Position numbers and translations under genes: made by a program
Shown: piece by piece, positions 36,872 to 37,387 of the stretch
Layout: each line of letters opens with the position of its first letter
Numbering within the stretch: the first letter of the stretch is position 1
Sequence record: PQ657772.1
Strand: one strand, 5' to 3'
Length of the DNA stretch: 64,000 nucleotides
Source: Escherichia phage EC.P1
The notes under the pieces: generated by a model
The model's input: the letters and a program-made list of their open reading frames with translations, nothing else
Databases searched by the model: none
Told to the model about the DNA's origin: nothing

Positions 36872-37387
36872 TTAATAATTATTCATTTCATCTTTGATTT
36901 GTTCTTCAATTTCGTCGAACATATCATTACTAGATTCGTCCTTACTACTTACGTTCTGCATATCTTTAACGTACTGTGGACATTCAACATCAGTAAACTT
37001 ATACCACGTAGGTTTCATCTGGAGCTTCTCAATCAAACGGTCACGAGACATTTTAATCTCTGACTCCGATGGTACGTAGTCATTACAAAACTCAGCCGGG
37101 AAGCCGCTAATGTCGTTTACTTCAGTGTTTTGAATCTTCATACCACGACGCAAACATTCGTTAACAATATCAATATGACGCTTCTGTAAGTACAATAACT
37201 TGTTGTAGAAGAATGTTACATGACCTGAACCTAACAGGTAAGTACTGTTAATTTTGAAATCACGGACTCGCTTACGTGCGTGAACATGTTTTTGTACAGC
37301 ACCAAACACACGTGGGAGTTCACGATATTCAGCCATCAGATGTTGGTCAGCAAGTTCTTTAACGTGTACTAAGTTAATGCGTGTCAT
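36872..37387 (-). CDS. denV: pyrimidine-dimer DNA glycosylase (T4 endonuclease V family) with acidic C-terminal extension
   Basis: N-terminus [31 protein letters not shown] is near-identical to T4 DenV; catalytic Thr2/Glu23 positions conserved. Confidence 0.85.

Follow-up and report, generated by a model that had tools for sequence, protein, structure and literature searches.

The window analyzed here is a 64,000-nucleotide (nt) stretch of Escherichia phage EC.P1 (record PQ657772.1). On its minus strand it carries a denV gene encoding a homolog of the ultraviolet (UV) repair enzyme T4 endonuclease V (DenV), and the subject of this analysis is the acidic C-terminal tail by which the encoded protein extends beyond its catalytic core. 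The source is a 121Q/PBECO4-like (Rak2-like) jumbo coliphage of the genus Asteriusvirus, the region showing 97.5% nucleotide identity to Escherichia phage fEgEco12 and 95–97% to 121Q, UB, JP4 and others. In the records of fEgEco12, 121Q and others, the gene is labelled 'endonuclease V N-glycosylase UV repair enzyme' or denV, and the 121Q product gp217 is 97% identical to window DenV, tail included. The gene and its parts are located as follows:

36872–37387, minus strand: denV coding sequence with ATG start, 171 codons and TAA stop (36872–36874), taken from the list of open reading frames (ORFs) and the sequence.
36986–37387, minus strand: catalytic core, residues 1–134, ending in WYKFTDV, delimited by AlphaFold2/Foldseek and the map of mismatches to the WPEC5 allele.
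36956–36985, minus strand: start of the putatively swapped 3' module and predicted C-terminal helix, residues 135–144, placed by the drop in identity and the alignment of C-termini.
36926–36955, minus strand: linker, residues 145–154, rich in Ser, Asn and Asp, modelled with low confidence as disordered-like and variable in length and sequence.
36875–36925, minus strand: terminal motif, residues 155–171, a predicted acidic amphipathic helix at the extreme C-terminus, conserved in relatives.
37396–37399, minus strand: Shine-Dalgarno-like GAGG, 8 nt 5' of the denV ATG, found by reading the sequence.

Window DenV matched the Pfam family PF03013 (Pyr_excise) with 55.1 bits at a cutoff of 23, and PHROG 1183, 'endonuclease V N-glycosylase UV repair enzyme', with an E value of 4e-58 over residues 1–133; none of the NCBIfam models matched it. 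Since the PHROG 1183 match covers 137 of the 139 profile positions and ends at residue 133, the family consensus does not contain the tail. Among PDB entries searched with phmmer, the T4 endonuclease V structures 2end, 1enk and 1vas were the top matches, with E values of about 1e-53 (1.4e-53 for 2end) and colinear over residues 1–131. Identity to T4-type DenV proteins amounts to 64–66% by tblastn, and that to T4 endonuclease V itself to about 64% over residues 1–131.

In T4 endonuclease V, the alpha-amino group of Thr2 serves as the Schiff-base nucleophile and Glu23 is catalytic. Within an alignment of 31 family sequences, Thr2, Arg3, Arg22, Glu23, Arg26, Arg117, Lys121 and Tyr129 are invariant and Trp128 is nearly so; all of these residues are present in window DenV, which begins with MTRINL, has E23 within YRELPR and keeps both the basic residues that contact DNA in the family (R3, R22, R26, R117 and K121) and the aromatic W128-Y129-K130 segment, with F rather than Y at position 131. 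An AlphaFold2 model built with 31 homologs assigned the core a predicted local distance difference test score (pLDDT) of about 90. Foldseek returned 1enk and 2end as top matches for this model, with an E value of 6e-15, a root-mean-square deviation of 1.7–1.8 Å over about 130 columns and a target-normalised template modelling score of 0.87, and the predicted core is the all-alpha T4 endonuclease V fold. A preceding sequence-only reading, which had recognized a DenV homolog with Thr2 and Glu23 in place, was thereby borne out by sequence, profile and predicted fold. The protein is almost certainly a bona fide DenV enzyme, and its assignment as a cyclobutane pyrimidine dimer DNA glycosylase/apurinic-apyrimidinic lyase of the T4 endonuclease V type is well supported by these comparisons. 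The gene is an ordinary denV that had been annotated before, and its basic annotation remains unchanged.

With 171 amino acids (aa), window DenV is 33 residues longer than T4 DenV (138 aa) and 27 residues longer than the 144-aa form of related jumbo phages. The Asp/Glu-rich tail that had been described as absent from T4 DenV is indeed so, and its sequence had been quoted correctly. Residues 145–171, comprising 27 aa, include 9 acidic and 2 basic residues (net charge −7, isoelectric point (pI) 4.05). The core carries a net charge of +5 and has a pI of 9.1, compared with 9.4 for T4 DenV; the charge of the tail neutralises this basic core and lowers the pI of the whole protein to 6.3.

The extension is composed of three parts. 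Residues 135–144 are the counterpart of the P-x-Y-Y-x-x-M-[IL] segment in which tail-less alleles end, and the predicted C-terminal helix begins at residue 138 in the AlphaFold2 model. In the adjoining linker, residues 147–154 have pLDDT values below 50, linker length ranges from 0 to about 19 residues across relatives, and the substitutions among Asteriusvirus alleles are concentrated there. The terminal helix reached a pLDDT of about 70 in the 171-aa model and about 80 in a 158-aa allele; in the latter, which has no linker, one continuous helix spanning residues 138–156 was predicted at a pLDDT of about 80. Furthermore, the helical hydrophobic moment of the motif is 0.51, compared with 0.20 ± 0.10 in shuffled sequences (p about 0.002), so that the terminal motif is a significantly amphipathic predicted helix.

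The terminal motif was found in four sub-branches of the clade of jumbo-phage DenV proteins, namely Asteriusvirus, P0008/L024, P0011/L029 (where the call is frameshifted and the motif lies in the +1 frame) and Xanthomonas phage XbC2 together with P0010. Its consensus is hydrophobic-[DE]-[DEN]-[IV]-E-x-Q-I-K-[DE]-E-M-x-x-[Y/E]-COOH, and it always lies 0–2 residues from the C-terminal end. Among the positions that do not vary between the lineages are the non-acidic Q163, I164, K165 and M168, and the substitutions observed are conservative (D/E, I/V, F/Y/L). Between lineages, identity within the motif (60–73%) is about equal to that within the core (66–78%), and the linkers cannot be aligned. Moreover, all linker insertions and deletions among the tailed alleles are in frame: ph0011 has 4 codons fewer, XbC2/P0010 have 8 codons more, and the 158-aa alleles P0003/P0004 have 13 codons fewer owing to a clean 39-nt deletion between GATATG direct repeats that keeps the motif. 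Taken together, this pattern of conservation indicates that the tail is a translated, sequence-specific element under purifying selection, carried on a flexible tether, and there is a strong case for regarding it as a selected functional module rather than junk.

Every motif-bearing sub-branch also contains tail-less sister sequences. Among the Asteriusvirus genomes on deposit, 17 distinct phages (18 records) have the full tail. About 12 E. coli jumbo phages, including PBECO4, slurp01, phAPEC6, WPEC5 and CMSTMSU, encode proteins of 144–147 aa ending in ...P-x-Y-Y-x-x-M-[IL](K) before the stop codon, and RaK2, K64-1, GAP32 and CBB, relatives infecting Klebsiella, Cronobacter, Pectobacterium and Erwinia, likewise possess the short tail-less form. 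Close relatives without the tail are about as numerous as tailed phages.

The origin of this polymorphism was traced at the nucleotide level. The tail-less WPEC5 allele is 98–100% identical to the window and fEgEco12 alleles up to about nt 400 (codon 134). Past nt 400–405, identity falls abruptly to 67–71% in comparison with WPEC5, and to 65–71% with WPEC5 and PBECO4 considered together. This abrupt drop after codon 134 points to recombinational replacement of the denV 3' end and not to a nonsense or frameshift event. The sequence downstream of the tail-less stop codons in PBECO4, WPEC5 and RaK2, translated in three frames, contained no relic of the tail, the DNA being unrelated. A read-through or frameshift origin of the tail, against which the sequence-only reading had proposed that the extension be checked, is ruled out by the lack of such a relic in any frame; the extension survived this check, the difference being a swap of the 3' end from about codon 135.

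For the same reasons, an artefact can be given next to no probability. It would consist in a lost or frameshifted stop codon, or in a sequencing or annotation error, with the real protein ending near residue 138–144, and a metagenomic homolog, P0011/L029, does contain a frameshift in its linker (164-aa call). However, this frameshift breaks a tail rather than creating one, as the +1 frame encodes an intact ...QYDEIEQQIKDEMQEY followed by a stop codon; furthermore, the window and 17 independently sequenced phages all have an uninterrupted 171-aa frame, and the tail-less alleles hold no relic. The frameshift in P0011 itself stems from faulty assembly or else marks a tail that decayed recently. 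The locus lies at L029 514–1008 plus the next approximately 60 nt, on metagenome contig ERZ27235606 k119_217585.

In jumbo phages, the denV 3' end is a hot spot of recombination, and the tail could in principle be a functionless extension that arose when 3'-end recombination fused downstream sequence to denV and that persists by drift. Other, unrelated extensions in the same clade fit this explanation, namely a basic 29-aa tail in P0018, 9 extra residues in P0015 and the fusion in P0005, as does the unaltered core where the tail is lost. Drift would not, however, be expected to hold Q-I-K-[DE]-E-M invariant at 25–35% core divergence, and four diverged lineages retain one motif that is about as well conserved as the core, next to a linker that has decayed. 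The in-frame insertions and deletions and the amphipathic periodicity likewise speak against a neutral appendage, which is considered improbable. The patchy distribution of the tail fits an old tail that was lost repeatedly, as judged from the sequences; modular transfer of the 3' end is a possible alternative account.

Some Salmonella jumbo phages show further changes at the same gene end. In P0005 (Salmonella phage SD-2_S15, 242 aa), denV and the downstream PBECO4-type ORF form one in-frame fusion, and SD-6_S16 and SD-1_S14 are also among the phages in which denV is fused or interrupted. Such cases could reflect errors in sequencing, or else genuine rearrangements of the gene end at this hot spot.

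In order to find the motif elsewhere, several sequence collections were screened. With the tail as tblastn query and E values up to 10 accepted, 50,697 phage records yielded denV only, at one place per genome. Scans of IMG/VR with degenerate DNA patterns found 121Q only, and among the 20 matches of a DNA-pattern scan of JGI metagenomes only L024 carried the denV tail. The 33-aa tail yielded 0 phmmer matches among 1.84 billion representative proteins and 0 in the PDB. Within the window the motif is unique, and an unfiltered hidden Markov model of the motif, run over the complete set of 5,012 stop-to-stop segments from 121Q, detected DenV only (E value 5e-13); the next match (E value 0.13) lies inside a small membrane ORF and is due to chance. 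A hub-binding module common to several proteins is thus ruled out at the sensitivities used, as DenV alone was recovered. The tail is private to DenV and not a docking motif of several client proteins.

The sequence-only reading had also suggested a role as DNA mimic or interaction module. A rigid mimic in the style of Ocr, ArdA or Ugi would copy the phosphate backbone of DNA and so inhibit a host DNA-binding defence or repair protein instead of regulating DenV. The carboxylate density (9 of 27 residues) on a phage protein with an early-type promoter agrees with such a role. On the other hand, a single helix of about 17 residues is far smaller than known mimics, conservation is centred on the non-acidic residues Q, I, K, M and N, unlike in a generic polyanionic mimic, and the PDB and representative-protein searches revealed no similarity to solved structures or defence-related families. 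Moreover, there is no clear reason to tether such an inhibitor to a repair glycosylase. A mimic of this kind is regarded as highly improbable.

The interpretation favored here is that the tail acts as a specific docking helix, in cis or in trans. Specificity of the element is favored by its invariant non-acidic positions and its amphipathic periodicity, and by analogy with other acidic tails a docking role is judged somewhat more probable than not. The overall statement, comprising a genuine DenV enzyme, a selected tail module and a specific docking helix, is assigned a probability of roughly 0.6.

The proposed mechanism starts from DenV initiating base-excision repair of UV damage in phage DNA. 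The basic core bears an accessory module consisting of a helix start (P-x-Y...), a disordered-like Ser/Asn-rich linker and a predicted acidic amphipathic helix of 15–17 residues. The latter would function as a tethered docking element, with F157, I160, I164, M168 and Y171 forming a hydrophobic face flanked by carboxylates, and would bind a specific basic or hydrophobic surface. T4 endonuclease V slides on undamaged DNA by non-specific, salt-sensitive electrostatic contacts. One candidate surface is the DNA-binding face of DenV itself, whose occupation would reduce non-specific DNA affinity and electrostatic sliding; alternatively or in addition, the helix might bind a partner protein. DNA or the partner would then displace the docked helix. 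An electrostatic effect of the tail on DNA binding is plausible. Measurable damping of non-specific DNA binding in cis, as suggested by analogy, has slightly less than an even chance of being correct, and the existence of a dedicated partner in trans is somewhat more doubtful.

Several observations weigh against a docking function. Repeated loss of the tail is seen among phages that infect the same host and whose cores are otherwise identical, and T4 DenV works without it, which implies that any function of the tail is non-essential. In the 158-aa allele, the lack of a flexible linker restricts how the helix could fold back onto the core, and the P0008 lineage ends in ...EMNLE, without the terminal aromatic residue. 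Furthermore, no partner candidate emerged, no other 121Q protein bearing the motif. A clamp-binding or SSB-like replisome motif was considered and rejected, as the C-termini of the 121Q single-stranded DNA-binding protein (SSB), polymerase, ligase, RNase H, helicases, primase, UvsX and UvsY are unlike the tail. The gp43-like polymerase of 121Q ends in ...NNGFFTW, and the SSB annotated in 121Q (NC_025447.1) has a basic C-terminus, ...ARLKQQGK, with no acidic tail, in which it differs from T4 gp32, T7 gp2.5 and E. coli SSB. A weak 'DMFD' likeness to the C-terminus of the RB69 polymerase was dropped because it is not kept in other tailed lineages.

As a separate observation, 121Q gene 11 near the SSB gene encodes a 142-aa hypothetical protein with an extremely acidic end, ...EDQDDEEYYDDEEDSQY. 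The two genes lie in NC_025447.1 at 5379–6431 and 10502–10930 (L032).

Two exact copies of a 33-nt cassette, GGGTTGACTTCGGTCAGCCCTTTTTGCTATAAT, flank the gene on either side and resemble the promoter-early stem-loop (PeSL) elements of T4-type phages. The flanking elements and neighboring genes are:

37416–37448, minus strand: upstream PeSL-like promoter and stem-loop cassette, identified as an exact repeat and by promoter scan.
36833–36865, minus strand: downstream copy of the cassette, starting 7 nt past the denV stop, identified as an exact repeat, by promoter scan and by RNA folding.
42039–42071 and 49175–49207, minus strand: further cassette copies, identified as exact repeats.
37442–37855, minus strand: HNH endonuclease gene directly upstream of denV (PHROG 2255, E value 2.5e-32).
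36034–36804, minus strand: P-loop/AAA-type ATPase of 256 aa, with weak AAA and STAND Pfam matches and a match to PHROG 1250 (E value 7e-103), a family of unknown function.

Four exact cassette copies are present in the window, compared with 0 expected by chance. The hairpin GGGUUGAC-UUCG-GUCAGCCC with its U-run overlaps TTGACT-N18-TG-TATAAT. Its predicted folding energy is −21.4 kcal/mol (z −5.7), and the promoter scan recorded 11 of 12 matches, an extended −10 element (TGnTATAAT) and an 18-nt spacer. Judged from these signals, the upstream cassette likely supplies denV with an early sigma-70 promoter and terminates the HNH gene that precedes it, and denV is probably expressed early from its own sigma-70-type promoter. 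The downstream cassette is a putative denV terminator, promoter of the next gene and recombination junction.

The proximity of this cassette raises the question whether the 3' end of the ORF is conserved as part of an adjacent terminator/promoter unit and not for the peptide it encodes. A gap of 7 nt separates the denV stop codon from the PeSL-like hairpin, RNA folding predicts pairing of the final codons (AAUUAU) with the −10 region, and tail and cassette occur together in the window, fEgEco12, ph0011, P0003 and L024. Yet XbC2 and P0011/L029 keep the motif despite different downstream sequences, the differences between lineages are codon changes giving conservative replacements, and the conserved stretch covers about 45 nt compared with a pairing of 6 nt. 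Only a very slight chance is therefore given to a constraint at the nucleotide level. All four competing explanations, namely the artefact, the neutral appendage, the DNA mimic and the nucleotide constraint, are less well supported than a docking helix.

Comparison with relatives places the cassettes at sites of rearrangement. Five copies are clustered in 121Q at 98.7–112.7 kb, where they mark junctions of indels. The one that follows denV there is broken off in the middle of the hairpin and adjoins a 2.9-kb block (genes 218–222, including a 487-aa 'endonuclease') that is absent from the window, and the metagenomic phage L024 (75% identical) has the same hairpin after denV. The ATPase gene, a homolog of 121Q gene 223, directly follows denV in the window, fEgEco12 and ph0011, whereas in 121Q the 2.9-kb block separates the two genes. 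In ph0011 it is labelled 'ATPase-AAA-core domain-containing protein', with the note Phi92_gp231.

The HNH gene had no Pfam match at E values up to 0.01. It also occurs as a free-standing gene in fEgEco12, vB_Ec-M-J, UB, WPEC3 and JP4, is absent at that position in 121Q and has been reported absent from Ecwhy_1 (PMC13070987). It is probably a mobile homing endonuclease, and its co-conversion might contribute to the shuffling of denV alleles. As far as the alignments indicate, the swap of the denV 3' end sits in a region of active shuffling associated with cassettes and endonucleases, and relatives gain or lose the tail by recombinational replacement of the 3' end at PeSL-like junctions; we infer that cassettes or endonucleases caused the swap. 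On a rather unlikely reading, in which the tail regulates DenV in the manner of SSB acidic tails, the regulatory module would represent a mobile 3' segment, exchanged by PeSL-like recombination and giving rise to 'regulated' and 'unregulated' alleles in phage populations.

Two further gene groups were noted in the window. At about 16897–33490, the plus strand carries about 13 similarly sized ORFs (358–461 aa) arranged in tandem, labelled RCC1-like 'regulator of chromosome condensation' in relatives (121Q genes 234–248); the array is fragmented in 121Q and apparently intact in the window. The fEgEco12 paper describes the RCC1-like family as differing between phages. Just downstream of the denV region, seven contiguous small ORFs (104–123 aa) are located on the minus strand at 33527–35966, of which at least two are hydrophobic and membrane-like. 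They apparently form a paralogous family (121Q genes 224–232).

The enzyme is listed as UV-repair endonuclease V in the CBB paper and in general jumbo-phage papers (PMC5259590, PMC7824862). In the literature searched, jumbo-phage papers just list DenV, and no mention of the tail or of the tailed/tail-less polymorphism was found; as far as these searches show, the C-terminal module has apparently not been described before.

Compared with known systems, window DenV resembles T4 endonuclease V (2END, 1VAS; PF03013) in its predicted three-helix fold and in its catalytic and basic residues. To the T4 enzyme it adds the helix start, which is common to other Rak2-like jumbo phages, the linker and the acidic amphipathic motif. 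The DenV proteins of Rak2-like phages (121Q gp217, PBECO4, RaK2 denV, CBB_519, GAP32) are encoded by the orthologous gene in the same hyperplastic early region. The 144–147-aa forms of PBECO4, RaK2, K64-1, CBB and GAP32 stop after P-x-Y-Y-x-x-M-[IL], and window DenV continues beyond this point. T4 endonuclease V is the textbook case of lesion search by sliding; it also finds use as a reagent, and its potential for photoprotection of the skin has been explored. The nearly isogenic tail-less alleles in sister phages offer a natural test of how charge and intramolecular competition act in target search.

PeSL elements have been described as mobile regulatory cassettes of T4-like myoviruses (PMC2839356, PMC4122927); a description for Asteriusvirus was not found in the literature searched. 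Like those of T4-type phages, the window cassettes consist of a near-consensus sigma-70 promoter overlapping a stem-loop, are situated between small variable genes and lie exactly at indel or replacement junctions between close relatives. They differ from them in the Asteriusvirus hairpin and the 18-nt promoter spacing. With regard to local genetics, promoter/stem-loop cassettes would thus shuffle gene ends as well as whole genes.

The third comparison concerns SSB-type tails. The acidic tails of T4 gp32 and E. coli SSB compete with DNA for the binding surface and dock partner proteins. The same two roles are attributed to the acidic tail of T7 gp2.5 (PMC10359462, citing Marintcheva 2008, PMC2538852). 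T7 gp2.5, the T4 gp32 A-domain and the E. coli SSB C-terminal tail (SSB-Ct) share with window DenV the layout of a basic core, a flexible linker and an acidic/hydrophobic C-terminal tip, and tips of both kinds usually end in an aromatic residue. By this analogy, the tail might switch DenV between inert and DNA-engaged states, with a phage or host factor as recipient. Recruitment of a partner by the helix, if it occurs, would reveal that jumbo phages hand off lesions or intermediates during repair. That window DenV is the first DNA glycosylase regulated like the SSB acidic tails, its helix shielding the DNA-scanning face or handing the enzyme to a factor, is rather unlikely. Sequence homology to SSB-type tails is absent, DenV is a glycosylase acting on damage in double-stranded DNA and not an SSB of the oligonucleotide/oligosaccharide-binding fold, and the likeness is one of analogy only. 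Moreover, the DenV motif is predicted to form a helix of about four turns, whereas the SSB-type tip is short and extended.

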